Shown piece by piece: positions 4,119 through 38,121 of a stretch of DNA of 38,121 nt. The translations under genes were made by a program, and so were the position numbers. Positions within the stretch are counted from its first letter, which is position 1. Each line of letters opens with the position of its first letter. The notes beneath the pieces are model-generated. The model was not told the DNA's origin, did no database searches, and saw only the letters and a program-made list of their open reading frames with translations. This DNA is from a virus (taxonomy: Duplodnaviria > Heunggongvirae > Uroviricota > Caudoviricetes): IMG/VR virus record IMGVR_UViG_2563366897_000009. One strand, 5' to 3'.

Positions 4119-4440
4119 GAAACCAGAACATGCACACACAAAAAAACCGCTTGCCATGCCGCAATCAGTCAGGTTACATTTCCGCTGCACCTCACAAAAC
4201 GGGTGCCGGGTTTCGCAGCCTGCTGACTACACAAGCGCACAACCGCGCCAGCGTTTTTTTTGTGCGTACTGTATTGCCACGTTTTTTTCGCGTCAGAATT
4301 ATGGCGGGGCGTACGGGGCCGACTTCGGTCGGGCCGGGTTCTTGTGTAGCCGGTACTGCGAACCTCGTACGTCTCGCCACCCACAGTTTCGCAGCTCTGG
4401 ATGGTGAGTTTTCACAACTTACTACACAAGGGGCCACACC

Positions 4441-4671
4441 ATGGCAAACCGCAAACCACACCGCGCTATCGCGGAGCGTCGTCACATCCAGACTGAAATC
4501 AACCGCAGACTTTCCCGCGCATCACGCGTCGCGCAAATCATGCACATCAATATGCTGCATGAGCGCAGCCACGCACTATCAAACATTTATTCCGCCTCTG
4601 TTTTCAGCTATCTGGCGGATGATCTGCACGAGCTTCAACAGCTCATCCAGCAGCAAAACAAACTCCATTAA
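4441..4671 (+). CDS. hypothetical small basic protein
   Basis: 76-aa ORF with an AAGGGG ribosome-binding site; follows a 320-bp GC-rich non-coding gap. Confidence 0.45.
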   Translation: MANRKPHRAIAERRHIQTEINRRLSRASRVAQIMHINMLHERSHALSNIYSASVFSYLADDLHELQQLIQQQNKLH

Positions 4672-4743
4672 CTCCTGTTCCGGGCCTTTCCTGCACCTTG
4701 CGGCGGGAGGCCTTCGCACATCTGTAACAAGAGGATTGCCGCA

Positions 4744-5109
4744 ATGATTCTCGCCAACGACTTTCTTGAATACCTGCTCAACACAGAACGTGATCTTGCC
4801 GCTCGCGTGCGTGATCGTTATGACATGTACCTGAAATCCCTGCCTGTACCGCAGCTCGCTGACGGAAAGATTGTTATTGATGGTCGCTACATGATTGACA
4901 GCCACGAGGGAAATTACAGGCTTTACCGCATTGAAGGTGGCACCCCGTCCGTTATTGGCATTTACCAGCGCCCATCCTCTGCAATCGTCGATGTGATTGC
5001 CGACAGCATCCGCATCACACATCGCCATGCCGACACAGAAGACACCGTGCTGGAAATTCAGCGGCTGGCTACAGTCTGCCGCGACACCCTGAATGGCATG
5101 ACGAAGTAA
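4744..5109 (+). CDS. hypothetical protein upstream of A
   Basis: 121-aa ORF with an AAGAGGA ribosome-binding site. Confidence 0.5.
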   Translation: MILANDFLEYLLNTERDLAARVRDRYDMYLKSLPVPQLADGKIVIDGRYMIDSHEGNYRLYRIEGGTPSVIGIYQRPSSAIVDVIADSIRITHRHADTEDTVLEIQRLATVCRDTLNGMTK

Positions 5110-5115
5110 ATCACT

Positions 5116-7938
5116 ATGACGGCAGAGTACATCAGGGGCTGGCAACAACCGCGCCACGCAGTGGGGCGTGAAGGAACGGGGATCCCCGCTCCTGAATCCG
5201 CGCTTTCCTCCTGGCTGGATGCCTACCGGGTAGAGAACGAGCACCGCCAGGAAATGGCTGATGCGGCGTTCTCCGCAACGCCGCTGGGCAACCTGATTAA
5301 TAAAAGCCTGAACGCACAGGAAAAACAGGACAAAACCATCACACTGGCAGGAGATGCCAGAAAACAGGCACGCGGCGCGGTGGATGAAGCCATGGCCTCG
5401 CTGCGCCTGCTGCCGTCCTATCTGCGCGATCCGCTTATTCGCCACCTCTCCTTCCTGCGCAAAAAACAGGAAGCCGATCGTCAGAAAGGCAAAAAGAGCT
5501 GGCAGGCTGAACGCTACGCGCGCGGAAACCTGCGCAAAATATTCGAACGTCTGGATCGCACCGATCACCGCTGGCTGACACAGGGTTATCGCTCCCTTGC
5601 CGGACGCGAACGCCTGGACGATTTGCTTTACCTGCCGCAGCTCAACAAACACCAGATACAGACACTGGCCACCATGACGGCGGCGATGTTCAGCAGCACC
5701 TTCGAAAAACTCTGCGATGGCTTTGGCGCGACCGATGGCGAACTGACCATGGATGTAACGCTGAAGGCGTATCAGATGCTGGCCCGCATGGCGTTACACC
5801 TGCACGCCATGCCTCCACATTATGACGCACTGACAACAGACAAAGACCGGAGGAACGAACCGGACACGGAGCTGCTGCCGGGCGCAATCCTTCGCCTGAC
5901 CTGTGCAGAATGGTGGAAACGCAAACTGTGGCTGTTACGTTGCGAGTGGAGAGAAGAACAACTCCGCGCCGCCTGTCTGGTTTCCAGAAAAACATCGCCC
6001 TATCTGAGCCAGGACGCGTTAAGCGAGTTTCGCGCACAGCGCGAGAAAACACGCGATTTCCTGAAAAGTTTCATGCTGGAAAATGAAGACGGGTTCACGA
6101 TTGATCTCGAGACGGTGTATTACGCGGGAGTAAGTAACCCGGTTCACCGTAAGGCAGAAATGATGGCCACCATGAAGGGGCTGGAACTTCTGGCCGAAGC
6201 CCGTGGCGACAAAGCGGTGTTTCTGACTGTCACCTGCCCGTCAAAATACCACGCCACAACAGAGAACGGTCATCCGAATCCCAAATGGAACGGGGCCACC
6301 ATGCGCGACTCCAGCGATTACCTGGTTAACACGTTTTTTGCGGCGGTCCGCAAAAAACTGAACCGCGACGGTCTTCGCTGGTATGGCATCCGCACGGTGG
6401 AGCCTCACCATGACGGCACCGTGCACTGGCATATGATGGTCTTTGCGCATCCGGAAGAAATCGACAGCATCGTGGCCATCACCCGCGATATTGCCATTCA
6501 GGAAGACCGCCACGAGCTGGGCAATGATATTACTCCGCGCTTTAAGGCGGAGTATGTCGACGGCTCAAAAGGCACACCAACCAGCTATATCGCGACCTAC
6601 ATCGGAAAGAACCTGGACAGCCGCGCCGTGGATGGCATCGACCCGAAAACGGGCAAGCCACGCGTTGACCACGAAACCGGAAAATCAATGGCCGAGAGTG
6701 TGGAGCGCGCCATCGGCTGGGCGCGCCTTCATCGGGTCCGCCAGTTCCAGTTCTTTGGCATCCCCTCCCGTCAGGTGTGGCGTGAACTGCGCCGCCTTGC
6801 CAGCCAGATGGCACGCAACCCGGAAGGCCCGCAACGACTGAAAGATGACGCAATGGATGCGGTACTCGCTGCCGCCGATGCCGGGTGTTTTGCCACCTAC
6901 ATTGAAAAACAGGGCGGCGTACTTGTTCCACGCAAAGACTACCTGATTCGCACCGCCTACGACCTCGCAGATGAGCTGAATGATTACGGCGAACAGAGCG
7001 TACAGATTTACGGGATCTGGTCACCACTCATCGGGGAATCCTCCCGTGTGTGCACGCATCCGGATAACTGGAAACTGGTAAGACGTAAACCGGAAACGGA
7101 AGACAGCGCCCGCGAAAATGGTTTTGACCTTCAGGGCGGCCCTGCCGCCCCTTGGACTCGTGGCAATAACTGTCCCCGTGTACAGGAAACGGACAACAAC
7201 GGGACAGAACAGCCGGAAGAACGGCCAGCACCGTGGCCGCAGCTCCCTGACGGCGTTGAAGTGAACGAATGGATGCGCTCACTGAAACGACACGAACGCC
7301 GGGCGCTGATGCGTTCGCTTCGTGACAAACAGGCAAAAAACAGCAGCGATGAAATGCAGAGCTGGACACAGAGCCGCAAACAGCAGCGGCCTTTGCCTGA
7401 TAACCACGAATTACTCGCTAAAGAATGGCGGGAGTCTGCTGAATCTCTCGGCCTGCATATCGGTGAACAACAGATGCAGCACCTGTTACGGGGCGGCAGT
7501 CTGTACGTTGACGGCAGCATCATTGCACCGCAGGGATTTGAAATTGTACGCAAACCGGATACCCGCCCGGACAGCCGAATCACGCAGCTCTGGCAGCGCC
7601 TGAGCCGTAATCACGGCGTAAGCAGCACGGAGATCCGCCATAACCCGGTCTCCAGCTATCTGGCACAGCTCGGGGCATCAGACCCCGAAGCCGCCGCACG
7701 CCTGGCATCCACACTTCAGCAGGTCCAGAACACCATGAAAACACCCGTTACCGTGCTTTCTGACATGCTGCGCGCCATTCGTGACGCAGAGCACGCACAG
7801 AGAATCAGAGAAACCACTGAACGCGCCCGCCGCAAAGCAAACCTGCTGAGGACTGGCCTGACCAGTGGAAACAAAAAACAGACAGAAACGGGATTCACAA
7901 ATCCCGTAAATGAGCAAAAAACGCGCCGCGATATATGA
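5116..7938 (+). CDS. A: replication initiation endonuclease A (rolling-circle)
   Basis: 940 aa; contains the HWHMMVF HUH-type motif and sits where gpA does in P2-like phages; I recall P2 gpA as shorter, so this copy has a C-terminal extension. Confidence 0.8.
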   Translation: MTAEYIRGWQQPRHAVGREGTGIPAPESALSSWLDAYRVENEHRQEMADAAFSATPLGNLINKSLNAQEKQDKTITLAGDARKQARGAVDEAMASLRLLPSYLRDPLIRHLSFLRKKQEADRQKGKKSWQAERYARGNLRKIFERLDRTDHRWLTQGYRSLAGRERLDDLLYLPQLNKHQIQTLATMTAAMFSSTFEKLCDGFGATDGELTMDVTLKAYQMLARMALHLHAMPPHYDALTTDKDRRNEPDTELLPGAILRLTCAEWWKRKLWLLRCEWREEQLRAACLVSRKTSPYLSQDALSEFRAQREKTRDFLKSFMLENEDGFTIDLETVYYAGVSNPVHRKAEMMATMKGLELLAEARGDKAVFLTVTCPSKYHATTENGHPNPKWNGATMRDSSDYLVNTFFAAVRKKLNRDGLRWYGIRTVEPHHDGTVHWHMMVFAHPEEIDSIVAITRDIAIQEDRHELGNDITPRFKAEYVDGSKGTPTSYIATYIGKNLDSRAVDGIDPKTGKPRVDHETGKSMAESVERAIGWARLHRVRQFQFFGIPSRQVWRELRRLASQMARNPEGPQRLKDDAMDAVLAAADAGCFATYIEKQGGVLVPRKDYLIRTAYDLADELNDYGEQSVQIYGIWSPLIGESSRVCTHPDNWKLVRRKPETEDSARENGFDLQGGPAAPWTRGNNCPRVQETDNNGTEQPEERPAPWPQLPDGVEVNEWMRSLKRHERRALMRSLRDKQAKNSSDEMQSWTQSRKQQRPLPDNHELLAKEWRESAESLGLHIGEQQMQHLLRGGSLYVDGSIIAPQGFEIVRKPDTRPDSRITQLWQRLSRNHGVSSTEIRHNPVSSYLAQLGASDPEAAARLASTLQQVQNTMKTPVTVLSDMLRAIRDAEHAQRIRETTERARRKANLLRTGLTSGNKKQTETGFTNPVNEQKTRRDI

Positions 7939-7979
7939 AGCGCGCACAAAACAGGCGAAAGCGGGATTTAAAAATCCCG
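7889..7979. repeat. two copies of an 18-bp palindrome (CGGGATTnAnAAATCCCG), 73 bp apart, upstream of parM; candidate parC-like centromere or operator
   Basis: Copies at 7889..7906 and 7962..7979; the first lies inside the 3' end of A, the second just before the parM ribosome-binding site. Confidence 0.5.
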
Positions 7980-8014
7980 TAAACGGTTAATTAACCAACA
8001 TAAGGAAAACCGAC

Positions 8015-8974
8015 ATGAAAATTTGTATCGACGACGGCTCCACCAACATCAAGCTGGCATGGACTGAGAATGGCGAACGCCGCAACGCCATCAGCCCGAA
8101 CAGCTTCAAGTCGGAATGGTCTGCGCCGTTCGGTGGCATGCAGCCCGCGAACTACATGCTTGATGGCGTGCGCTATGGTTTTGATCCGGTCAGCGATCGC
8201 TTTGTCCAGACGACCGACACGCAATACCAGTACAGCGATGTGAATGTAATCGCCATTCATCACGCGCTGGTCAAATCAGGCATCACGCCACAAGAGGTGG
8301 ATGTGGTTGTCACCCTGCCACTGAGCGAGTATTTCGAGACAAACGCACAGCCGGACATGGCCAACATCAACCGCAAAAAAGCGAACGTTATGCGCTCGGT
8401 GGAGTACCAGAACGGCGAAGCATTCACTATCCGTAACGTGCGGGTTATGCCTGAATCCATTCCGGCTGGCTTTAAAGCACTGGCTGACATGAGTCCGTTT
8501 GAATCCCTGCTGATTGTGGATTTAGGCGGAACCACGCTGGATGTGGCAAAGGTTCAAGGGCAACTGGCAGGTATCAGCCAGGTGTTTTGCGATCCACACG
8601 TAGGCGTTTCCCTGATGGCCGATGCCGTACTGTCGGTGATGGCCACTAACGGTATGCGCACCAGTCACCACATCGCCAATACCATTATCGAACATCGCCA
8701 TGATGAAGCCTGGCTGCGCCAGCACATCCACAATGACGCGCATTACGCCAGCCTGATGGCGGTTATTCGTGAAAAGGAAGAAACACTGAAACAACGCGTG
8801 ATCCGCGCGCTGGCGGTTTTTTCGGGTTACGGGCGGGTGATGGTTGTCGGTGGAGGGGCGGAGATTGTGGCACCCGCTATCCGCGAAGTCTGCGGAGTTA
8901 ATGCGACTTTCATCGCGGACGGGGTGCCACAGTTTGCTCTGGTTAATGGGCTGTACGCAATGGACAAGGAGTAA
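8015..8974 (+). CDS. parM: ParM/StbA-like actin-type partition ATPase
   Basis: N-terminus MKICIDDGSTNIKLAW and the motifs VMPESIPAG, DLGGTTLD and VGGGAE resemble plasmid R1 ParM as recalled. Confidence 0.8.
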   Translation: MKICIDDGSTNIKLAWTENGERRNAISPNSFKSEWSAPFGGMQPANYMLDGVRYGFDPVSDRFVQTTDTQYQYSDVNVIAIHHALVKSGITPQEVDVVVTLPLSEYFETNAQPDMANINRKKANVMRSVEYQNGEAFTIRNVRVMPESIPAGFKALADMSPFESLLIVDLGGTTLDVAKVQGQLAGISQVFCDPHVGVSLMADAVLSVMATNGMRTSHHIANTIIEHRHDEAWLRQHIHNDAHYASLMAVIREKEETLKQRVIRALAVFSGYGRVMVVGGGAEIVAPAIREVCGVNATFIADGVPQFALVNGLYAMDKE

Positions 8975-8978
8975 ACCA

Positions 8979-9293
8979 ATGACGACACCAACCAGACGGA
9001 TAAGTTTCTATCTGAAGCCCGCCGCCGTCAAGAGTGAACAGGAGGCGTGCAATTACCTCGATAGCCTGCCAGCCTCCGAACGCAGCCGCGCGCAACGCGC
9101 GGCCTTTCTGGCTGGGCTAGCGCTCATAAAGCGCAACCCAGCATTTGCCTACTGGATGGCCGAATGGCCAGAGGACAACCTCCCCTTCAATACCGTTAGC
9201 ATCAAGGAAACATACCAGGATAATCAGCCTAGCGGAGTTGAATGCAATTTTTATAAAATTGCAAAGAATATTCAGACCTTATTCCCAGAATAA
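8979..9293 (+). CDS. parR: ParR-like adaptor (ribbon-helix-helix)
   Basis: RRISFYLKP...LDSLPASERSRAQRAAFLAGLAL resembles the R1 ParR N-terminus as recalled; directly downstream of parM. Confidence 0.6.
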   Translation: MTTPTRRISFYLKPAAVKSEQEACNYLDSLPASERSRAQRAAFLAGLALIKRNPAFAYWMAEWPEDNLPFNTVSIKETYQDNQPSGVECNFYKIAKNIQTLFPE

Positions 9294-9376: not shown

Positions 9377-10219
9377 TCATGATGAAATTGCCGAAGTTTT
9401 TTTATCGTGCTGAAGTACCGCAAATGCCATTAAAACCTCAAGAGAATAGCGGCGATAATACTTAACAAAACCATAATAAAATACTCGGGATGCAGCAATA
9501 CAAAACAAGAGAAGAAAACAAAAAGGTAACAGTCTGATATTTATATCTATTAAAAAGGATAGAAGGAGCAGGAACATAAGCAACCAGACTGAAGCGAGAA
9601 AAACAAATGTAATGTTTCTACAAAAACCATACAAAGCAACATAGTTTTGCATTTTCACCTGATGATTTTTAGAATGTTCATACACATAATGATAAGCAAG
9701 GCGAAAAAGATCGCCCCTCAAGCCCTTACGTCGATATAGCGTAGATACAGAAAAAACATTTATATAACCATCTCGTATTTGCGGCCAAAAGACTTTAATA
9801 AGTATAGAATGCAGTGTGGTTTTATGATGTTCTGCTTTATCAAAAGCTGATACAGGAAATAAAAAAACTCCACGAATAAAATTAACTATACTGAACTTAG
9901 TATTATGTCGTTTTATTTTCAGGGAGCTTCTTTTAGAAAACAGATAAATTGAAGGATACCCAAGTTTACTGTTCATGTATTTTTCAATTAAACAGGATGA
10001 TAGAATAGATATGAAGTGACCTGAAATATATGATAGAACGATTAATACCACATATATAAATACACTTATTATTTCTTTATATTTCAGGATATGGTTAAGA
10101 ATACCTTCTATATAAACAGGGTTAATTTCAATAGAAAACAAAAAAAGGATAAACAGGAATAACCCACCTGGAATTAGATAGCCCAAAAAGTCATAAAATG
10201 AAAACGGATTCTGTGTCAC
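9377..10219 (-). CDS. multi-pass membrane protein of unknown function (hotspot cargo, second gene)
   Basis: 280 aa with about five hydrophobic segments; GTG start preceded by AGGGGGAAG; strongly AT-rich. Confidence 0.6.
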   Translation of the reverse strand: MTQNPFSFYDFLGYLIPGGLFLFILFLFSIEINPVYIEGILNHILKYKEIISVFIYVVLIVLSYISGHFISILSSCLIEKYMNSKLGYPSIYLFSKRSSLKIKRHNTKFSIVNFIRGVFLFPVSAFDKAEHHKTTLHSILIKVFWPQIRDGYINVFSVSTLYRRKGLRGDLFRLAYHYVYEHSKNHQVKMQNYVALYGFCRNITFVFLASVWLLMFLLLLSFLIDINIRLLPFCFLLLFCIAASRVFYYGFVKYYRRYSLEVLMAFAVLQHDKKTSAISS

Positions 10220-10258
10220 ACTTCCCCCTGTGTTACTTGTAAATTAAAGGGTAAAACA

Positions 10259-10756
10259 TTATTTGTTTTTCCGTAAAGGATTAGCTTTCCATCTTCTTAC
10301 TAACCATTCGAATTCTTGATATGTAGTATCCGAATTAATGCTTTCTCTGATTGCTTTAATTAATGGCTCGGCAATATCATATGTCTCTACAACTGTTGTG
10401 TAAGATGTTCTTTTTATCATTTTTTCATCATAAATACCTTCACGAATACTTACAGCAACTCGCTCGTAAAAATTTAAAATATATTGAAATTTTCGGCGCT
10501 CGGCCATTTCTTCATCTGTTATTATGCAACCATCACAAGGAAAAACATAAGAACGAAATGATTTGCCTGAACGATGCACTTGTTTCAGGGTATGCAATGA
10601 CTCTATATATTGCATATCTTGCCGACTCTCAAAAAGAAAGTTGGCCGTTTGAGTTTTTTTTGCGGTACGCACATTGTAGATAATGGTTCCAATGGCAACC
10701 AAAACGCCAAGCAGAACAATAGTATTGCTGATGATTTGTAGTGTTATTGGGTTCAT
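10259..10756 (-). CDS. single-pass membrane protein of unknown function (hotspot cargo, first gene)
   Basis: 165 aa; N-terminal transmembrane helix (residues about 5-27) followed by a charged soluble domain; AT-rich; 40 bp upstream of the 280-aa gene. Confidence 0.6.
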   Translation of the reverse strand: MNPITLQIISNTIVLLGVLVAIGTIIYNVRTAKKTQTANFLFESRQDMQYIESLHTLKQVHRSGKSFRSYVFPCDGCIITDEEMAERRKFQYILNFYERVAVSIREGIYDEKMIKRTSYTTVVETYDIAEPLIKAIRESINSDTTYQEFEWLVRRWKANPLRKNK

Positions 10757-11404: not shown

Positions 11405-12451
11405 TCAGGATGTGGGCTGGGTGTCTAACAGTGCGTAAGGGTTAAAGCGAATCACCTCTTCGCCAAGCCAGTCATTGATGTGCTTCATGGCCTCCATGAC
11501 GGGCATCAGCTCGTTAATTGCGTAAACCCGCGCGGCCTTCTCCACATCACCAAACGCACTTTTTTCGCCTGGCATCGCCCCCATCAGTTGCGGCGGAACG
11601 CGGTGCGCAGCCAGCACATCATCACGGGATGCCACCTTAACATTCATGAACTCATCCTTTGCGGTGATCTGCTGGAACGGCAAAATTTGCACCCCCTCTT
11701 TGCCACCGTTGGGCGCATGAATGAGCACGTTTTTAAACGCACCACCACCACGCGCACCCTGTAGCGTTTCTTTCAGGGAGTCCATGCTTTCGCGGTTTAC
11801 CTGCGCTGCACCGATGTAGATGATGCACCCGGCGTGGGATCCGTTGTCGTAATACAGTTTTCTGAACATGTCCGCCGAATGAGACAGGCTGGCCGAGAGT
11901 AATGCGCCGAGATATTCCGGCATGCCGTAGATTTCCTGGTTAATGTCAGGATTCATCAGGTGGCACACTTTGCCAGGGCGAAACTGAAACGCGTCCTTGC
12001 CATCCTGCACATACCACCATGATTCAAGATCGCTTCCGCGTCGCATGTATTTCGCCAGGGCGTGCCGTAATTTAAGCGGTTCGCCGAGCATATTGCTTCG
12101 AAGCTCAAGGAATGCGTTACCGAACACAAACCAGTCCAGCGCCAGCGCCGAGAAATCCTGCCGGGAAAGCAACGGGTGCGGGATGTAGCAACCGAGTAAT
12201 ACATTGCGCTTAAAGTAAAGCGCAGACTGATGCCAGGACGTTTGCCGGGCAGCTCTTGCCAGACCGTACCAGTCCACCGGGGTTTCATACCACCGCCCGT
12301 TATCAGCACAGTACATATTGTCCAGCAGGTCATGCCCGGTCAGGCGATAAGGACCATCAAATGTGAATGCACTGAGCGATGATTCTTTCCTGAGCGCATC
12401 AGCGAGATCAATGCGTGAACTCATGCGCACTTTTTTATTTTTTCTGCTCAT
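11405..12451 (-). CDS. Q: portal protein
   Basis: 348 aa; ATGA overlap with the stop of P; position and size match P2 gpQ. Confidence 0.8.
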   Translation of the reverse strand: MSRKNKKVRMSSRIDLADALRKESSLSAFTFDGPYRLTGHDLLDNMYCADNGRWYETPVDWYGLARAARQTSWHQSALYFKRNVLLGCYIPHPLLSRQDFSALALDWFVFGNAFLELRSNMLGEPLKLRHALAKYMRRGSDLESWWYVQDGKDAFQFRPGKVCHLMNPDINQEIYGMPEYLGALLSASLSHSADMFRKLYYDNGSHAGCIIYIGAAQVNRESMDSLKETLQGARGGGAFKNVLIHAPNGGKEGVQILPFQQITAKDEFMNVKVASRDDVLAAHRVPPQLMGAMPGEKSAFGDVEKAARVYAINELMPVMEAMKHINDWLGEEVIRFNPYALLDTQPTS

Positions 12452-22613: not shown

Positions 22614-24038
22614 ATGAGTACCACAACACGAAAATTTAAAACCGTTATCACCGATACAGGTGCAAAAAAATTAGCTCAGGCAGCCGCGCCAGATGGTAAG
22701 CCTGTCCGCCTGACTCATATGGCCGTGGGCGACGGTGGCGGCACGTTGCCCACACCAGACAGTAAGCAGACCCGTCTGGTGCATGAGGTGTGGCGACACA
22801 CTGTTAATCGCGTCATCCTGGACGCAACACATCAGAACCGCATTATTGCGGAGCTGGTTATACCTCCTGAAACGGGCGGATTCTGGATCCGGGAAATTGG
22901 TGTATTTGATGAGCACGGCGATTTAATCGCGGTGGGCAATACTGCCGAAAGTTACAAGCCAACCGTTGCCGAGGGGTCCGGACGTGCACAAACATTTCGC
23001 ACCATTCTGACCGTATCCAGCACTGCCAGCGTGGCGCTTACCGTGGATAACACCATGGTGATGGCCACAGTGGATTACGTGGATGACAAACTGAAAGAGC
23101 ATGAACAGTCACGACGTCACCCGGATGCCTCGCTGACCGCAAAAGGCTTTGTTCAACTCAGTAGCGCCACTAACAGCGATTCTGAAACGCTGGCCGCAAC
23201 GCCGAAAGCGGTTAAGGCCGCGTATGACCTGGCTAACGGAAAATATACCGCTCAGGACGCCACGACGGCACGAAAAGGGATAGTCCAGCTCAGCAGTGCA
23301 ACCAACAGCACGTCTGAAACGCAGGCTGCAACGCCGAAAGCAGTAAAGGCGGCATATGACCTTGCTAACGCAAAATATACCGCTCAGGACGCAACGACGG
23401 CACGAAAAGGGATAGTTCAGCTCAGTAGCGCCACTAACAGCCCGTCTGAAACGCTGGCTGCGACACCAAAAGCGGTTAAGGCGGTAATGGATGAAACGAA
23501 CAAGAAAGCGCCTTTAAACAGTCCTGCGCTGACCGGAACGCCAACAACGCCAACTGCGCGACAGGGAACGAATAATACCCAAATCGCAAGCACGGCTTTC
23601 GTTATGGCTGCGATTGCCGCCCTTGTAGATTCGTCACCTGACGCACTGAATACGCTGAACAAGTTAGCGGCGGCGCTGGGAAACGACCCGAATTTTGCGA
23701 CCACCATGACTAACGCGCTTGCGGGTAAGCAACCGAAAGATGCCACCCTGACGGCGCTGGCCGGGCTTGCTACTGCGGCAGACAGGTTTCCGTATTTTAC
23801 GGGGAATGATGTCGCCAGCCTGGCAACCCTGACAAAAGTCGGGCGGGATATTCTTGCGAAATCGACCGTTGCTGCCGTTATCGAATACCTCGGTTTGCAG
23901 GAAACGGTAAATCTGGCTTCTGGCGCATTACAGAAAAACCAGAACGGCGCAGATATTCCGGGTAAAGATACCTTCACCAAAAACATTGGTGCCTGCCGCG
24001 AAGACGGCGCAGGGATGAAAAAAGGTATGGAGCATTAG
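22614..24038 (+). CDS. H: tail fibre protein H, conserved part plus a 44-aa tail after the crossover site; distal domain appears truncated
   Basis: 474 aa with three tandem 44-aa fibre repeats; the reading frame crosses the invertase site at 23878..23903 and stops at 24036. Confidence 0.75.
   Translation: MSTTTRKFKTVITDTGAKKLAQAAAPDGKPVRLTHMAVGDGGGTLPTPDSKQTRLVHEVWRHTVNRVILDATHQNRIIAELVIPPETGGFWIREIGVFDEHGDLIAVGNTAESYKPTVAEGSGRAQTFRTILTVSSTASVALTVDNTMVMATVDYVDDKLKEHEQSRRHPDASLTAKGFVQLSSATNSDSETLAATPKAVKAAYDLANGKYTAQDATTARKGIVQLSSATNSTSETQAATPKAVKAAYDLANAKYTAQDATTARKGIVQLSSATNSPSETLAATPKAVKAVMDETNKKAPLNSPALTGTPTTPTARQGTNNTQIASTAFVMAAIAALVDSSPDALNTLNKLAAALGNDPNFATTMTNALAGKQPKDATLTALAGLATAADRFPYFTGNDVASLATLTKVGRDILAKSTVAAVIEYLGLQETVNLASGALQKNQNGADIPGKDTFTKNIGACREDGAGMKKGMEH
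23878..23903. repeat. left crossover site for the Gin/Pin-type invertase (gix-like), inside H
   Basis: TTATCGAATACCTCGGTTTGCAGGAA is the inverted counterpart of the site at 27181..27206, differing at a few positions; both share the central TC/GA dinucleotide. Confidence 0.7.
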
Positions 24039-25142
24039 GTATGGACAGCGCCGCCATTTGCTGTTGGGCGGAAGAGTCATCGAGTTTTTAACCGTCGTTC
24101 CAGAAGGAGCACTGGCTCACGGGCTTCTGGAGTTATTATGGCGACTACAGCTACCGGTTGTGATTATACTAGGCTTAACTGTGAAGTGAATGAAGTGATA
24201 GGGACTGGTGGCGCAATGGCCCGTCGTGCTTATGCGGCAAGTACGTCTTCCGCGGGCCAGACTAATGAGCGCCAATTCCCCTATATTGTTCATGGCCATA
24301 AATAAGCTGATGTATGCAGAGTAGATTACGTCACGAGCAACCCGTTTCCTGTACTTGCTTTTGCGCAAAAAGGACTAACGGTCATTGATGAAAATGATGA
24401 TGATTCGATCGGTAATACCAGAGTTAATTATGCAGCAACCAGTCGCGCGTCAACATTCATGCTCCAACTAACTATTCAGGATGGGAACAACGCTCGAGTA
24501 CATTTCCGTGCGAACTCAATATACGGCATTAACTCTTTTCGTACCGCGAATCATGGGAATGGCTTTGCAAATGACTTGTCGGGGTTTTAAATAACAACCG
24601 GAGATACCTATGCGGGGTATATTCGAGCAGATGCTGGGGCGCAATGTACTTATAGTTTTGGTGCGGATGTACTCCTGGGTGGACATGGCTCTGCTCAGAC
24701 ATTAAATGGTATCGGCTCTGCTGAAAGGACGGTTTATGTAGTTTCGAGTGCAGATACCGGTACCCGTAATGAATCATTTAATTCGACGCGGGCTTCGTCA
24801 GTACCAAATTGCACTAATCGGAGGGATTATACAGCGGGGCGTATCTATAGACAGTGCACTTAAGATAACTTACTGACGTTAACCGTAAAACGAAAGAGCA
24901 AAACCAGCAACTGGAGCAACATAAAATCCAATGACGTTAAAGAGGGTAGGCATAGCACAGGGCAAAATAATGGAAGGAACTACTGGCAGACATTGAGCAA
25001 ACGGTGCCCTTCAATACCGGTATTATTTTTTGTAAAGGTTCGGGTGTTTGATCAAAACATCGGGAATGCTCTTGCGGGTTTGTATTACAGGCTAGTACAG
25101 CAAAACATAATGCGGACATGGCGTGTAGAAGGGTGCGTAAAA
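24039..25142 (+). pseudogene. forward-orientation tail-fibre variable arm broken by in-frame stops
   Basis: In the H reading frame only five stops occur across about 410 codons (at 24036, 24303, 24588, 24861, 25143); the translation is fibre-like and homologous to the opposite arm. Confidence 0.5.
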
Positions 25143-26241
25143 TAGGATGAGTGTAAAGAACATCTAAGCGCGAAAAAGAAAAAAGCCAGCACGCTAAAAG
25201 TGAAAAACAAAGCCTGGTATCACTCGGCTTTAATATGAACCAGCGATAGGCCGGTCAGATAAAGTTAAGAATTTTTTCCGAGGAAAATTAACAAATGTTA
25301 ACAGAGTGAATACTCTTTTTGCAGCTAGTCCAATATATGCACAAACGCAGCCTCCCGGTAATTTTTGCGGAGCTGAGGTAACTAGTAATAGCTTCATATC
25401 ACGTCCTGATGTTTACGGTGAATTGATTGGCCAGTCTGGCTCTGCCGTAACACCGAGTCAGACCGTAGATGAGTAGCGTTCACATGAATCAACACGTGAG
25501 GACTCGTTACCTTCCGCAGTAGTCAGCGTGATTGAGCGATTGAGTCGCTGTATAAGGCTGTCTATGTCGGCGAGTGAGGAATGCTCTTGACTTGCGTCCT
25601 GGGGTCGCTGTAGAGCTGTCGTCTAAAGCCGGTAAACGACAAAGCCATCATGGCCCCACAATCTACCTGAGTCGTCAGGGCGCCGGTTGGAGCTTATACC
25701 CGTTCTGGTAACACCGCTAAAACTATCGGCAGGCTGCGAGGAAGTATAGCTTCTAATTTCTACACTAATAGCATCCTCACCGTTAATATTCTTTTATTTG
25801 CGTCGGAAAAGGTGCCTCGCTTTCTCAGAGCAGTCCTTCCCTGCGTCTTATCAAAGACGAACTGTAGCATGCTTTTCTGTTAATTTTCCCTCTGCCAGCT
25901 TTTCACCGTTACCGGATTTTATCGCTTTTCAATGCCTCCTTCTATGAGCATCCAACATCCTGCCATGTGCGAATGGTATATTGTTGTAATAGCCGGTAAT
26001 TAAAAGCCGCTTGATTCTTGCGGAATAAGTAACCAGTCACCCTAATCAATACAACAGATAATACCTGTCTTGTCGTGCACCAGTAGCTCCGTGTTTGGCA
26101 GGTAATTATATTGTTCCTCAGATCAGATCTTAGCATCCTATCAATAACATATCTTGATTTAATGTTGTCCCGGTTGCTTGGATTTATCTGTTGTTTTAGG
26201 GCTGATAGCACTAAGGTTTCTGTAGTGCATCATCGATAGAA

Positions 26242-27180
26242 ACGCCCGGCTTTATACCACCTCCGATCAGCGCCAGATGGTCTTGACCAAGTTCCCCACG
26301 AGTCAATTGATTCATTACGGGTTCCGTTATTTGAACTTGTAACGGCATAACACTACCTGTCAGCACAGTCAATACCCTTCAATGATAGAGCAGAGCACTT
26401 TCTACACAGGCGTATATGCATAATATTACCAGAATTACATTGTGCCTCAGCATCAGTTTGAACATACCCCGTAGAGGTATCTCCGGAAGCGGTTGAATTC
26501 CCCGCCCGGTCAGTAGCAGAGCCAAAACCAAGATTTCCTCTAAAAATGGCATTAACACCGATCCTTGAATTAAAGCAATAATACCCACGAGCGCAGCTCC
26601 ACTCCTGAATGGCTAGGGCGTTGGTGCTTGCTGTTGCACGACTAATAGCTCCCCAATTAAATCCGGTTTGACAGTTCGTGTAATCCTGTGTAGGATTAAT
26701 GACCGTTCGCCCTTTTTGGGCTAAAACAAACGCAGGCAGAGCCTTGTTCGCGACGTAATAAAGGCTGCATCCAGGATCTTATTCATCGCTATTTTTAATA
26801 GAGTGGAATTCGGGCTCATTAATCTGGCCCGCCCAAAACTAACCTGCCGTAGATACGCGAAGGGTAGTCCAGCCGCCAGTGATAATCATTTCATCGACTG
26901 CACATGTATGAAAAGCATTATCACAACTGGCATATGTGGTGGCTATAATCACTGCATAAGCCCATGAGCCTTTGCTCCCTGAGTAAGGCTGGTTAATTGC
27001 TGCCTGCCACTCTCCACCAACAGTAAAATACGGCGCATTACAGACCTACCGATCCCTACCTTTATTCAGCCACACCCCGCATTCGCGGCAGGCACCAATG
27101 TTTTTGGGGAAGGTATCTTTACCCGGAATATCTGCGCCGTTCTGGTTTTTCTGTAATGCGCCAGAAGCCTGATTTACCGT
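26242..27180 (-). pseudogene. reverse-orientation tail-fibre variable arm broken by in-frame stops
   Basis: Read inward from the right crossover site the first 44 codons nearly repeat those after the left site, then a TAG; fibre-like sequence continues with further TAG/TAA/TGA stops. Confidence 0.5.
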
Positions 27181-27206
27181 TTCCTGTAAACCGAGGTTTT
27201 AGATAA
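27181..27206. repeat. right crossover site for the Gin/Pin-type invertase
   Basis: TTCCTGTAAACCGAGGTTTTAGATAA resembles gix/hix-type sites as recalled; lies 55 bp before the invertase start. Confidence 0.75.
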
Positions 27207-27260
27207 TGGCCGTTTCCGGCCTGCATGGCATGATTTGCGCTTTTGGACGGGAGATTCAGT

Positions 27261-27860
27261 GTGCTGATTGGTTATGTAAGGGTATCAACAAATGACCAGA
27301 ATACAGGCCTGCAACGAAACGCTCTTGTTTGTGCAGGATGTGAACAAATATTTGAAGATAAATTAAGCGGGACAAAGACAGACCGACCGGGATTAAAACG
27401 CGCTTTAAAGCGGCTTCAAAAAGGTGACACGCTGGTTGTCTGGAAACTGGATCGCCTTGGGCGAAGCATGAAACATCTGATTTCTCTCGTCGGAGAACTA
27501 CGGGAGCGAGGGATTAATTTTCGCAGTCTGACCGACAGCATAGATACATCTTCTCCAATGGGGCGTTTTTTCTTCCACGTGATGGGTGCCCTGGCTGAAA
27601 TGGAACGTGAATTAATTGTTGAACGTACACTGGCCGGACTGGCGGCAGCGCGCGCACGGGGGCGCACAGGCGGACGTCGCCCGAAGCTGACAAAAGAACA
27701 GCATGAGCAAATAGCAAGGCTGATCAAAAACGGTCATGACAGGAAACAACTGGCGATCATTTACGGCATCGGCATATCGACGATTTATCGTTATCACCCT
27801 GTAGGCGATATACAGGCTGAAGAAACAACCTGGCAGACTCAGGAAAATGAAAACCGCTAA
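27261..27860 (+). CDS. serine DNA invertase (Pin/Gin/Hin/Cin family)
   Basis: VLIGYVRVSTNDQNTGLQRNAL...VWKLDRLGRS is close to e14 Pin as recalled; GTG start with a GGGAG ribosome-binding site. Confidence 0.85.
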   Translation: MLIGYVRVSTNDQNTGLQRNALVCAGCEQIFEDKLSGTKTDRPGLKRALKRLQKGDTLVVWKLDRLGRSMKHLISLVGELRERGINFRSLTDSIDTSSPMGRFFFHVMGALAEMERELIVERTLAGLAAARARGRTGGRRPKLTKEQHEQIARLIKNGHDRKQLAIIYGIGISTIYRYHPVGDIQAEETTWQTQENENR

Positions 27861-35626: not shown

Positions 35627-35959
35627 ATGGCATTAATCAAATGTCCTGAATGCCAGAAAGAGGTGAGCGATTCAGCATTGTATTGCCCTGCTTGTGGTAA
35701 ACAACTGCAAAAACTTAAGCGTTCATTTTTTGGACGGATCATTAAGTGGGTTTTTATATTATTTAATATTTTTATGATCTATACGCTTTTAGTTGGAATA
35801 GGAGGCACTAGTGAAATAATAAATAATGCCACATCCGATGCCGAAAAAGCCGGTGCAGTTATTGGTACAGGCTTAGGTTTAATTACCATTGGAAGCTTAT
35901 GGGTTATTGGCGATATCATTATCGGAATTTTAGTATTTCTTACTAAACCAAAGGGATAA
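35627..35959 (+). CDS. zinc-ribbon membrane protein (cargo)
   Basis: 110 aa; N-terminal CPEC...CPAC zinc ribbon followed by two hydrophobic helices; AAGGAGG ribosome-binding site; AT-rich. Confidence 0.6.
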   Translation: MALIKCPECQKEVSDSALYCPACGKQLQKLKRSFFGRIIKWVFILFNIFMIYTLLVGIGGTSEIINNATSDAEKAGAVIGTGLGLITIGSLWVIGDIIIGILVFLTKPKG

Positions 35960-35963
35960 TAAA

Positions 35964-36857
35964 ATGAAAAATATAATTTTTTCTATAGGTGCATCATTTA
36001 TATCAATTAGTGTACTGCCTGTTCACGCAGCAACTGAACATAAGAACTTCAATGCAGTACTTCAGTGCCGAGCAATAGAAAATAATAAAGACAGACTTTC
36101 TTGTTACGATAAGTCAATACAACCGACTCGAACGAAAGTTGCTGAAAAATTCGAAAGCAGAGATCAATGCCCTGATGAGAAAGATGATGATAGACGTTTA
36201 TCTTGTTATGATCGTTTCTTTTCTCCAACATTTACTCCATCTGTAAACTCAAAATCTAAAACGGAAAAGCCAGTAACAACAGAGGCTCAGCAACCAAATC
36301 TTTCTGAGATATCTAAATGTCGTGCAGAAAATGATAAAGAAGCCAGACTAAACTGCTACGATAAACTATTCCCACAGGATAAAATCGCTCAAGCTGAATC
36401 AAAATTAGAGAAAGCCACAGATGTAGGAAAATGGCACACATCCATTACTACATCGCCAATTGATGATTCGAAAAATGTAATTTTATCGTTAGAAAGTGAT
36501 GATTATATCAGAACTCCATTTGGAGAAGCGGTTACTCCTACTCTTTTTATAGCTTGCCGAGAAAAGAAAACCGAAGTATTTCTTAGTTGGGATGTATATT
36601 TAGGCCTTGAACAAACCAGCATGCTTTATCGCCTTGATAAACAGAAAGCAGTTGAGCGAAACTGGCTAGTATCTACAGATACAAAGGCTGTTTTTTATAA
36701 AGGTAATGACATTGATTTCATCCGAAAACTAGCCAACTCAAGCAAAATGTATACAAAAATAACGCCTTATAATGAGAGCCCCGTAAGTGCAACTTTCAAT
36801 TTAAACGGCCTGTCAAACGCGCTAAAACCGCTTCAAGCTGCTTGTAACTGGAAATAG
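35964..36857 (+). CDS. secreted or periplasmic Cys-repeat protein (cargo)
   Basis: 297 aa; signal peptide ending VHA-A; three roughly 45-aa repeats each ending RLSCYD(K/R); AT-rich. Confidence 0.6.
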   Translation: MKNIIFSIGASFISISVLPVHAATEHKNFNAVLQCRAIENNKDRLSCYDKSIQPTRTKVAEKFESRDQCPDEKDDDRRLSCYDRFFSPTFTPSVNSKSKTEKPVTTEAQQPNLSEISKCRAENDKEARLNCYDKLFPQDKIAQAESKLEKATDVGKWHTSITTSPIDDSKNVILSLESDDYIRTPFGEAVTPTLFIACREKKTEVFLSWDVYLGLEQTSMLYRLDKQKAVERNWLVSTDTKAVFYKGNDIDFIRKLANSSKMYTKITPYNESPVSATFNLNGLSNALKPLQAACNWK

Positions 36858-37125: not shown

Positions 37126-38121
37126 ATGATACAACCTATTTCCGGCCCTCCTCCTGGGCAACCACCAGGTCAGGGAGATAACCTGCCGTCTGGCGCGGGC
37201 AATCAGCCTTTATCCAGTCAGCAACGTACTTCGCTGGAAAGCTTAATGACGAAAGTGACCTCACTGACGCAACAACAAAGAGCAGAACTGTGGGCGGGTA
37301 TCAGGCACGATATTGGTCTGTCGGGAGATTCACCGCTGCTTTCGCGTCACTTCCCTGCCGCTGAGCATAATCTGGCGCAACGTCTGTTGGCCGCGCAGAA
37401 AAGCCATTCTGCCCGCCAGCTTTTAGCGCAATTAGGGGAGTATTTACGTCTGGGGAATAATCGTCAGGCGGTCACGGATTATATCCGTCATAACTTTGGT
37501 CAGACGCCGCTGAATCAGCTCTCACCGGAGCAATTAAAAACCATTCTCACCCTGTTGCAGGAAGGGAAGATGGTTATTCCGCAACCACAGCAGCGCGAGG
37601 CGACCGACCGTCCTTTATTACCGGCGGAGCACAATGCGCTCAAACAGCTGGTGACCAAACTTGCGGCAGCAACGGGGGAACCCAGCAAACAGATCTGGCA
37701 ATCGATGCTGGAACTTTCCGGGGTGAAAGATGGCGAGTTAATTCCAGCGAAACTGTTTAACCATCTGGTGACCTGGCTACAGGCGCGTCAGACGCTAAGC
37801 CAGCAAAATACGCCGACGCTTGAATCACTACAGATGGCGCTGAAACAACCTTTAGATGCCAGTGAACTGGCGGCGTTATCGGCATATATCCAGCAAAAAT
37901 ATGGCCTTTCTGCGCAATCATCGCTTTCTTCTGCCCAGGCCGAGGATATTCTTAACCAGCTTTATCAACGGCGGGTTAAAGGGATTGAGCCGCGTGATAT
38001 GCAACCGCTGCTTAATCCTTTTCCACCGATGATGGACACGTTGCAAAATATGGCAACGCGTCCCGCGCTGTGGATACTGTTAGTCGCGATTATCCTGATG
38101 CTGGTCTGGCTGGTTCGTTAA
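37126..38121 (+). CDS. flk: host flagellar regulator Flk (C-terminal membrane anchor)
   Basis: 331 aa; Pro/Gln-rich N-terminus and hydrophobic C-terminal anchor match E. coli Flk as recalled; lies outside attR. Confidence 0.7.
   Translation: MIQPISGPPPGQPPGQGDNLPSGAGNQPLSSQQRTSLESLMTKVTSLTQQQRAELWAGIRHDIGLSGDSPLLSRHFPAAEHNLAQRLLAAQKSHSARQLLAQLGEYLRLGNNRQAVTDYIRHNFGQTPLNQLSPEQLKTILTLLQEGKMVIPQPQQREATDRPLLPAEHNALKQLVTKLAAATGEPSKQIWQSMLELSGVKDGELIPAKLFNHLVTWLQARQTLSQQNTPTLESLQMALKQPLDASELAALSAYIQQKYGLSAQSSLSSAQAEDILNQLYQRRVKGIEPRDMQPLLNPFPPMMDTLQNMATRPALWILLVAIILMLVWLVR

Follow-up and report, generated by a model that had tools for sequence, protein, structure and literature searches.

A type II partition cassette with a candidate two-palindrome centromere in P88-like prophages of Escherichia coli

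The centromere of plasmid R1, parC, consists of ten 11-bp direct iterons (2 x 5) that flank the promoter, and in R1/NR1 as well as in pB171 the elements of the ParMRC locus follow each other in the order centromere, parM, parR, which is also the order, with a candidate centromere, in the locus described here. In type II systems, parC acts in cis, is built from repeated ParR sites and usually holds the autoregulated promoter. A module of this type has been characterised in the SXT/R391 ICEs, where srpMRC stabilised a test plasmid and bound its own centromere (Carraro et al. 2015, PMC4489591). Among phages, the RefSeq and GenBank records of P88, Citrobacter phage phiSM and other Xuanwuvirus members annotate a ParM or partition protein, and about a fourth of P2-like phages were reported to carry a putative partition system, which may allow their maintenance as plasmids (Rousset et al. 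2022). An earlier note on the present DNA had called such a module unexpected in a prophage that integrates into the chromosome. In view of these annotations and of the system noted by Rousset et al., this can no longer be said: the module is a conserved feature of this phage group that has already been annotated and commented on in the literature. What is absent from the P88, phiSM and Rousset et al. papers is the candidate centromere, the phage-specific clade of ParM and the fixed position of the genes by gpA.

The gene pair and its host prophage

The window, i.e., the whole stretch of 38,121 nucleotides that was analysed, holds a P2-like prophage of E. coli from the P88-like group (Xuanwuvirus), inserted beside flk. 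It begins with the gene for a tyrosine integrase (int, 1-1020) and has the host gene flk at its far end (37126-38121); flk-pdxB is the site used by this type of integrase, and these features bear out the earlier description of the host as an integrated P2-like prophage. Furthermore, the region aligns without gaps and at 100% identity with the natural chromosome of E. coli strain AH21F008. Gene A (5116-7938, plus strand, stop codon 7936-7938) encodes a rolling-circle replication initiator of 940 aa (gpA; Pfam Phage_GPA, 3e-131). The pair parMR (8015-9293) sits between this gene and the portal gene (11405-12451), with cargo genes between parMR and the portal gene.

The first gene of the pair, parM (8015-8974, plus strand, 319 aa), encodes an actin-like segregation ATPase. 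As had been proposed earlier, it is full length: both the StbA_N domain (1.4e-81) and the ParM C-terminal domain (1e-68) of Pfam are matched over their full length, PHROG 691 ('partition protein') matches at 2e-89, and the structures of R1 ParM (1mwk and others) match with an E-value of 3e-92 and 46% identity over 317 columns. No variation is seen in the nucleotide-binding motifs DDGST, PES, DLGGTT and GGGA, and the residues that do not vary across the phage clade are D6, D7, G8, S9 and T10, E147, D169, G171, G172, T173 and T174, and G279-A282, such that the phosphate-1, phosphate-2 and adenosine motifs of an actin-fold ATPase are intact. The dN/dS of parM ranges from 0.06 to 0.19, and the cassette is under purifying selection. 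A Shine-Dalgarno sequence, AAGGAAA, can be read in front of the gene (8003-8009, plus strand), with a TTAATYAA motif, kept in relatives, ahead of it.

The second gene, parR (8979-9293, plus strand, 104 aa), has its ATG at 8979, five bases past the stop of parM, and is a small ParR-family gene whose product is a predicted ribbon-helix-helix centromere-binding adaptor. It matches PF10784 (Plasmid_stab_B) at 7e-29 over positions 1-70 of 72 and PHROG 2515 at 1e-54, and a profile built from it and its relatives matches the ParR of pB171 (2jd3; E 1e-12, residues 7-130), in agreement with the earlier claim of a ParR-like adaptor behind parM. The protein is conserved at its two ends, in the strand TRRISFYLKP at the N-terminus and in the tail NIQTLFPE at the C-terminus, while the middle is hypervariable. 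Despite this hypervariable linker, a C-terminal N-x-x-x-(L/F)-F-P motif is found in all ParRs of the phage clade, and in the alignment it coincides with the LF at the C-terminus of pB171 ParR. parM and parR are bona fide type II partition genes.

The two palindromes upstream of parM

Two palindromes of 18-20 bp lie upstream of parM, CGGGATTCACAAATCCCG at 7889-7906 and CGGGATTTAAAAATCCCG at 7962-7979, with a start-to-start distance of 73 bp, as the earlier note had stated. Each is embedded in a 39-nt direct repeat consisting of an A-rich flank and the palindrome, and the two repeats are 82% identical. Candidate parC repeat unit 1 (7872-7910), in which the palindrome can be extended to ACGGGATTCACAAATCCCGT (7888-7907), lies within the last 22 codons of gpA and ahead of its stop, so that the first palindrome is indeed inside the 3′ end of gene A. 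Candidate repeat unit 2 (7945-7983) lies in the 76-bp spacer between gpA and parM, 36 bp upstream of the parM ATG. The 73 bp between the sites correspond to about seven helical turns, which would place both palindromes on one face of the DNA.

Single palindromes with 7-bp arms are not rare in this DNA, since 36 were counted in the window as compared to about 19 in simulations. The signal is rather that the same palindrome is duplicated, and that the pair is conserved in diverged relatives. Within the 38 kb window, the pattern CGGGAYT-N4-AATCCCG is matched exactly at the two palindromes only, and 7800-8020 contains one two-copy repeat family only. A paired GGG-N12-CCC site near the parM ATG is present at a matching offset in the E. 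coli, Hafnia and Plesiomonas relatives, and in these three diverged lineages the paired dyads lie at -126/-53, -128/-55 and -133/-61 from the ATG, i.e., with spacings of 73, 73 and 72 bp. In Hafnia, the open reading frame upstream of the sites is not gpA but another one, which suggests that the candidate sites travel with parM rather than with gpA. Furthermore, a natural variant without parMR (L073) has lost repeat unit 2 along with the genes. In the Serratia/Enterobacter subclade, the N-terminus of ParR differs (NRKISFYL), and the repeats differ, too.

Palindromes of this kind might also be RNA hairpins, either intrinsic terminators for the minus strand or stabilisers of the transcript at the end of gene A, instead of a centromere. 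Within the E. coli group, the two palindromes form 8-bp hairpins of -10 to -14 kcal/mol (z-scores -2.1 to -4.0), each is followed by a T-rich run on the minus strand, and one of them was called terminator-like. However, no minus-strand gene ends at the palindromes, the nearest such end being at 9377, and the plus strand has no U-tract. Moreover, the stems shrink to 3-4 GC pairs with 10-nt loops in Hafnia and Plesiomonas, and the T-runs are absent there, yet the GGG-N12-CCC dyads persist in pairs at 72-73 bp. The conservation of the two-site geometry where the potential for RNA hairpins is lost supports a centromere bound by ParR, and a hairpin function in its place seems very unlikely to us. 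As far as can be judged from the sequence, the upstream palindromes are thus a credible candidate for a ParR-binding centromere.

The number of sites is far smaller than in characterised parC loci, with ten iterons in R1, four 20-bp repeats in pSK41 and four 13-bp repeats in srpC. The coupling of ParR to the filament may need a larger complex than two sites.

With respect to expression, a consensus scan between gpA and parM found no plus-strand terminator and no sigma-70 promoter, the latter being a weak negative, and a scan for Ogr-type dyads or promoters near parM gave none. In P2, gpA is part of the repressed early operon. Since parMR follows gene A immediately and the scans gave no promoter for it, it is probably co-transcribed with gene A and expressed with the early replication operon.

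Distribution and possible roles of the cassette

Among 5426 complete E. coli genomes, about a quarter (1304) contain the cassette, strains of O157:H7, O127:H6 and ST131 being among them. A comparison of genomes with the cassette (1272) to those with this type of gpA (1321) shows that the two go together in about 96% of cases in E. coli. Outside this species, ParMs with 53-62% identity occur in prophages of Hafnia, Plesiomonas, Serratia and Enterobacter in the same order, gpA-parM-parR-cargo-portal, so that the survey of P2-like prophages proposed earlier reveals a gpA-adjacent parMR conserved across genera. The genes that come after parR are not the same among these prophages, whereas the position of parMR stays fixed. 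In a neighbour-joining tree, the phage ParMs form one clade (149 of 200 bootstraps) apart from the plasmid ParMs, and the true plasmids in PLSDB reach at most 52.6% identity. None of these plasmids has a similar parC.

These data bear on the earlier suggestion that the cassette is acquired hotspot cargo. It would then be a plasmid-derived moron serving defence, exclusion or incompatibility towards plasmids or superinfecting relatives. The location between gpA and the portal gene is indeed that of the known gpA-gpQ (tin/old) hotspot of P2, and parR occurs in at least three alleles with a mosaic structure and a recombination breakpoint at about 9033, the allele of the window being 54% identical to P88 ParR. 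However, the composition is not atypical, since the GC content of the cassette (0.54) is like that of the phage core, as compared to 0.31-0.38 in the downstream cargo (9377-10756), and the cassette is not swapped among close relatives but accompanies this gpA type almost throughout. The phage-specific ParM clade is syntenic across genera, and PADLOC returned zero matches. Furthermore, the parR alleles vary without covariation of the DNA-reading strand of ParR or of the sites, and two loci (L010 and L011) pair a P88-type ParR with window-type sites. We therefore regard a cargo function as highly improbable. Incompatibility towards plasmids, in particular, is unlikely because no plasmid shares the candidate centromere or has a close ParM.

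A second possibility is that P88-like phages are facultative phage-plasmids, in which ParMRC keeps the unintegrated, repressed prophage as a low-copy plasmid. One circular record deposited as a plasmid (NZ_CP148288.1, 34,461 bp) contains the whole of a P88-like genome, closed at attP, and a sister strain has the identical phage inserted at flk-pdxB. Also, the only other phage with this type of ParM in 50,697 phage records is D6, a P1-like plasmid prophage. Against this, 1442 of the 1444 places that hold the cassette in complete E. coli genomes are chromosomal, and the window, P88, L002 and the Plesiomonas relative all encode a tyrosine integrase, the other related loci stopping short of the int position. 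gpA is the sole replication gene among the open reading frames scanned, which were a part of those in the window, and in P2 it belongs to an operon that is repressed. pENTAS02, a P2-like phage without parMR, was likewise deposited as a circular plasmid, which means that such records can simply be excised circles. Phage-plasmids are kept outside the chromosome, have a plasmid-type replicon and mostly lack an integrase. In genuine P2-like phage-plasmids of Arsenophonus, int is replaced by RepA, ParA and a ribbon-helix-helix protein. Thus, even though a plasmid lifestyle was speculated upon by Rousset et al. 2022, we think it unlikely as the explanation of the cassette, while an episomal state of the phage as such is a plausible possibility.

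The module might, alternatively, serve the lytic cycle, with ParM filaments positioning or dispersing replicating circles for replication or packaging, comparable to PhuZ and unrelated to inheritance. In P2, the packaging substrate is monomeric circles. Such a role would agree with a location immediately after the gene for the initiator and with the failure of the scans to find a separate promoter, as well as with the conservation of the module in the active, inducible phages P88 and phiSM. However, P2, 186 and most other Peduoviridae do without it, as illustrated by the mere 16 of 50,697 phage records that have this ParM, and variants of P88-like phages without parMR exist. Moreover, a centromere together with an adaptor that has a ParM-binding tail is the architecture of a machine for pairwise segregation. 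A lytic role is improbable, about as much as the plasmid lifestyle.

With moderate confidence, we instead propose that the cassette is a functional type II (ParMRC) segregation module which belongs to the backbone of P88-like and related P2-like phages and distributes extrachromosomal circles. ParR dimers would occupy both GGG-N12-CCC palindromes via their N-terminal ribbon-helix-helix strand, their C-terminal tail would catch the ends of ATP-ParM filaments, and growth of a filament between two ParR-parC complexes would move sister phage circles to opposite cell halves. An integrated prophage segregates with the chromosome, and the module should therefore be of use only as long as the phage genome replicates as a circle outside the chromosome. 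Its active phases would be the time between infection and integration, and again the time once the prophage has been excised or induced. The gain would be phage DNA in both daughter cells, such that abortive lysogens become rarer and the excised element is lost less often. Most likely, then, its role would be to distribute phage circles before integration or after excision, a service that srpMRC provides to the SXT/R391 ICEs. A ParMRC system can matter only if two or more copies are present and the cells grow for some time. A lytic/lysogenic decision inside one generation would leave little room for a benefit. In addition, the natural variants without parMR look intact, implying that the function is dispensable for prophage persistence. 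Our search of the literature returned no binding, stabilisation or expression data for this module.

It is tempting to go further and to picture bimodal temperate phages, in which a phage-specific ParMRC with a minimal two-palindrome centromere, expressed with the initiator, actively segregates unintegrated or excised genomes and so creates, in roughly one E. coli strain out of four, a heritable carrier or plasmid-like state besides integration, while the rapid allelic turnover in the ParR linker reflects competition of co-infecting relatives. This extension is possible but doubtful. If the module is active, integrating tailed phages, like the SXT/R391 ICEs, would invest in the active segregation of transient circles, which would be relevant to how efficiently lysogens form, to abortive lysogeny, to carrier states and to the loss of prophages once excised. 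The sites would then also represent a very compact natural centromere, with two 18-20 bp sites within about 110 bp.

Comparison with known segregation systems

Among plasmid systems, the locus resembles R1/NR1 in its full-length ParM with all nucleotide-binding motifs, and pB171 in its ParR, which belongs to the same Pfam family and can be aligned from end to end, the C-terminal LF tail included. The carrier, however, is an integrating P2-like phage and not a plasmid. The earlier designation as R1-type is apt insofar as the type II ParM and ParR are related to those of R1 and pB171, but it does not extend to the centromere, which has two palindromes in place of the R1 iterons. With a single two-copy repeat family and a ParM from a separate clade, the locus is not an R1/NR1 parMRC. 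Plasmid parC loci, as exemplified by an IncI plasmid, are long AT-rich regions with many iterons, whereas the phage candidate is confined to two palindromes in and next to a short spacer, overlaps the upstream gene and has no recognisable promoter.

Among phages, P88, phiSM and other Xuanwuvirus (Peduoviridae) carry the cassette at 96-99% nucleotide identity. The integrase of the window is only 44% identical to that of P88, and the window prophage uses flk-pdxB. D6 has a ParM of the same StbA type, 47% identical to that of the window. The Arsenophonus elements demonstrate that a virion module of the P2-like kind can exist in plasmid form, but they lack an integrase and have a RepA replicon with a ParA-type partition system, whereas the window prophage keeps int.

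The best functional analogue is srpMRC of the SXT/R391 ICEs. In both cases a ParM-type module resides on a normally integrated element, and in both a small centromere, in the phage a candidate one, with few direct and inverted repeats lies upstream of the ParM gene (PMC4489591). The two differ in that SrpR has no recognisable ParR domain, whereas the phage ParR is a clear member of the StbB/ParR family, and in that the host of srpMRC is an ICE and not a phage.

The prophage and its parMR genes

The window spans a P2-like prophage in full, and nucleotide identity places this prophage in the P88 group (genus Xuanwuvirus, Peduoviridae). A tyrosine integrase gene on the minus strand (1-1020) is followed by the genes for a C-type repressor and Cox (1102-1823) and by further early genes, after which comes gpA, the gene for the rolling-circle initiator (5116-7938; Phage_GPA, 3e-131). 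The P2-type portal and the remaining P2-like virion gene set lie between the gpA side and flk, the host gene at the right end. The integrase shares 99.4% identity with those of the elements in NZ_CP148288.1 and NZ_CP148378.1; its identity to the P88 integrase is just 44%.

Inside or adjoining an Ash-family ORF (4130-4747), Rfam matches were obtained on the plus strand for the Hfq-binding RNA isrK (4187-4261, 57.5 bits) and for a C4 antisense RNA (4297-4384, 83 bits). These matches mark 4187-4384 as a c4-like antisense immunity element of the P1/P7 type, situated among the early genes of a P2-like phage. At the attR end, with ogr/gpD on one side and flk on the other, low-GC cargo on the plus strand (35627-36857) encodes a VasI-like protein (PF11319, an accessory of type VI secretion) along with a zinc-ribbon protein. 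In the phiSM paper, ORF1 of that phage is named a 'T6SS VasI family protein'.

The first ORF directly behind gpA is parM (8015-8974, plus strand). Both ParM Pfam domains are matched end to end (1.4e-81 and 1e-68), and the product matches the crystal structures of R1 ParM with an E-value of 3e-92 and 46% identity. It is followed on the same strand by parR (8979-9293), whose 104-aa product matches PF10784 (StbB/ParR, 7e-29) and PHROG 2515 'partition protein'; a profile made from this product and its relatives matched pB171 ParR (2jd3) over its whole length (E 1e-12). The earlier note had recognized a parMR cassette here and proposed a profile search, and the Pfam domains of ParM, PF10784 and the matches to solved structures bear this identification out. 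With a dN/dS of 0.06-0.19, parM is under purifying selection.

Neither the finding nor its main interpretation is new, since the GenBank/RefSeq records of P88, of phiSM and of over a thousand E. coli chromosomes annotate the genes as ParM or partition protein, parM is given in the phiSM paper as a fitness factor, and Rousset et al. have commented on it. What is new here is the fixed backbone position of parMR, a phage-specific ParM clade across Enterobacterales, a conserved geometry of two dyads and the allele mosaic of parR.

One part of the window is anomalous. An E. coli strain, AH21F008, carries a chromosomal prophage that is otherwise 100% identical to the window, but the block 24,001-27,190, which covers the tail-fibre C-terminus, the tail-fibre-assembly gene and the alternative-fibre region, is only ~64% identical, in perfect ungapped register and with no indels. 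Transitions and transversions in this block number 383:730 (ratio 0.52), the three codon positions do not differ in mismatch rate, and the block contains no ORF of more than 89 aa. By these signs, it looks like the product of random, non-biological substitution rather than of natural divergence; the parMR finding is untouched by it. To its right lies a gene for a Gin/Cin-type serine invertase (27243-27860, plus strand; Resolvase, 7e-50), with 83-87% DNA identity to the invertase region of Mu, D108 and P88, which implies that the segment to its left, scrambled in the window, is an invertible tail-fibre segment.

Backbone position and ParM lineage

It had been considered that parMR might be acquired hotspot cargo, but this was not borne out. 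The GC content of parMR (0.54) is like that of the phage core, whereas the two minus-strand genes that follow (9377-10756) have a GC content of 0.31-0.38. The latter are real variable cargo, and the genes at their position vary among P88, the circular record NZ_CP148288.1 and more distant relatives. In the window they encode a 280-aa predicted membrane protein (PHROG 12528, with a weak PADLOC match to Csx27 at 1e-5) and a DUF4760 protein, a pair also found in AH21F008 and in the IS26-captured prophage fragment on the IncC plasmid pC-Ec2-KPC.

The parMR cassette is present in 14 phage records and in 1304 of 5426 complete E. coli genomes, where 1442 of its 1444 places are chromosomal. A matching gpA (coverage of at least 80%) was counted in 1321 genomes and parMR in 1272, and therefore the two nearly always travel together; natural variants without parMR exist, but they are few. 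Together with the core-like GC content and a syntenic ParM lineage specific to phages, this near-constant pairing argues that parMR is part of the phage backbone.

The lineage itself is apparent from several comparisons. Across 72,556 plasmids, identity to the window ParM shows a clean gap: at 94% or above, the records are without exception pieces of this prophage, whereas the ParMs of genuine plasmids are all at most 52.6% identical. Among 50,697 phage records, the P88 group and phage D6 are the sole carriers of this ParM type. Relatives with 53-62% identity come from Hafnia, Plesiomonas, Serratia and Enterobacter, and all of them sit in P2-like prophages in the order gpA, zero to two small ORFs, parM, parR, cargo and portal, even though their gpA and portal proteins are only 29-56% identical to those of the window. 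A survey of P2-like prophages, which the earlier note had suggested, thus does find parMR behind gpA in E. coli and in these four genera. When 53 ParMs were placed in a neighbour-joining tree, those linked to phages grouped in one clade (149 of 200 bootstraps). The single exception to the rule that a ParM of at least 53% identity has a phage context is a frameshifted parM, 61% identical over its N-terminal part, on a 44-kb plasmid of Apirhabdus; this is an ordinary Rep3/ParA/umuDC plasmid and was rejected as a phage.

Enterobacterial ParM genes also turned up in assemblies labelled Vagococcus, Streptomyces morookaense, Clostridiales and Lachnospiraceae; one of the contigs, 226 kb long, carries a P88-like prophage (97% identity). 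Contamination or mislabelling of the assemblies is the probable explanation.

It was also proposed that parMR might act in defence or incompatibility against plasmids. This is unlikely and, as regards incompatibility, did not hold up: neither ParM nor ParR has a PADLOC match, and no plasmid was found with the window type of upstream repeats (parC) or with a close ParM.

Paired dyads upstream of parM and the mosaic parR

The palindrome pair described in the earlier note is real. CGGGATTCACAAATCCCG (7889-7906) lies inside the end of gpA and CGGGATTTAAAAATCCCG (7962-7979) within the 76-bp spacer that follows; they are 73 bp apart, each within a 39-nt direct repeat, and the motif has no other exact copy in the window. 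Palindromes of this size are common in the window, and it is the duplication and conservation of the pair that carry the signal.

Two related GGG-N12-CCC dyads are present in each of the E. coli group, Hafnia and Plesiomonas, at -126/-53, -128/-55 and -133/-61 from the parM ATG, respectively. Their spacing of 73, 73 and 72 bp is about seven helical turns, and in all three the stop codon of the upstream ORF falls between them. Since the upstream ORF in Hafnia is not gpA, the dyads go with parM. Good RNA hairpins are possible only in the E. coli versions. A terminator or RNA element does not fit, since the stems in Hafnia and Plesiomonas are reduced to just 3-4 GC pairs with a 10-nt loop, yet dyad and spacing persist. 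A dyad kept without its hairpin fits a site for a dimeric DNA-binding protein.

In ribbon-helix-helix proteins, the N-terminal strand reads the DNA. This strand of ParR is TRR(I/V)SFYL(K/N)P in the E. coli group, Hafnia and Plesiomonas; in a Serratia/Enterobacter subclade it reads NRKISFYLKP, and the repeat found upstream is another one, long and inverted. Within the E. coli group, parR has at least three alleles (window, P88 and E. albertii types) that are 54-62% identical to one another, whereas the adjacent parM stays 97-99% identical. All phages of the group have in common 18 codons at the start of parR and ~8 at its end, where the C-terminal tail is N-I-(Q/R)-x-(L/F)-F-P, and a recombination breakpoint lies near window position 9033, where many database matches end exactly. 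The gene parR is a mosaic. Its alleles show no covariation with the inner palindrome bases within the E. coli group. Two more perfect palindromes lie within parR, GCCGCGCGCAACGCGCGGC at 9085-9103 and GCAATTTTTATAAAATTGC at 9244-9262, the latter ~30 bp ahead of the stop codon.

Possible role and comparison with known systems

An integrated prophage has no need of partition, and in P2 the C repressor shuts off the early promoter in the lysogen. The stretch between gpA and parM was scanned and showed neither a sigma-70 promoter nor an Ogr-type late promoter (TGT-N12-ACA) nor a plus-strand terminator. The simplest reading is thus that the early promoter drives gene A and parMR together, as one transcript; ParMR activity would then fall in the phases with replicating circles, once the phage has infected a cell or been excised. 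A purely lytic role, in which parMR organises replication, seems improbable to us. We prefer a role in which ParMR would spread replicating phage circles over both daughter cells: ParR at the two dyads would couple the DNA to growing ParM filaments, and these would push two DNA copies apart, as in any ParMRC system. The benefit may be less abortive lysogeny and less loss of the excised element. In the literature searched, ParM of P2-like, P88 or CP-933T prophages is mentioned only in passing and no functional study was found, and the supplementary tables of O157:H7 proteome and transcriptome work contained no usable ParM/ParR data on expression in lysogens.

That parMR might instead serve stable plasmid lysogeny, an idea voiced in passing by Rousset et al., we consider rather unlikely. 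In its favour, NZ_CP148288.1, a 34,461-bp circular plasmid record of a cat isolate (strain Z1323PEC0009), consists of a whole P88-like genome, with the circle joined at attP. In a sister strain, a human isolate of the same project, the identical phage (100.0% over 24.9 kb) is found integrated, with flk on one side and pdxB on the other (NZ_CP148378.1, 2649492-2683653). However, such circular records can be excised circles, because pENTAS02 of Enterobacter soli (NC_015969.1), a P2-like phage with an integrase and without partition genes, was likewise deposited as a circular plasmid. The overwhelming majority of observed copies are integrated, and every related element with a visible int region (the window, P88, NZ_CP148288.1 and Plesiomonas) has an integrase. 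The 33.6-kb P2-like phage-plasmids of Arsenophonus, in contrast, have replaced int by RepA and a ParA-type system; in A. nasoniae (NZ_CP123572.1), RepA, a ParA-type ATPase and a ribbon-helix-helix protein occupy the usual int position, and among the window ORFs scanned no comparable replicon was found. Other 'plasmid' records with the cassette were rejected as episomal evidence, namely pC-Ec2-KPC, in which an IncC plasmid carries an IS26-flanked piece of prophage, and a linear, IS-ridden Shigella fragment; the remaining ones, of 0.27-1.4 Mb, are uninformative on this point.

For an integrating element that uses a ParM-type system in the way preferred above, there is an experimentally supported precedent in srpMRC of the SXT/R391 ICEs (PMC4489591). 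As to the plasmid systems, the label 'R1-type' in the earlier note suits the proteins in a broad sense, but it is unsuited to parC because the candidate phage centromere, with its two dyads, is far smaller than that of R1. The parC of R1 consists of ten 11-bp iterons, and an IncI plasmid offers the example of a 400-bp AT-rich region with several repeats.
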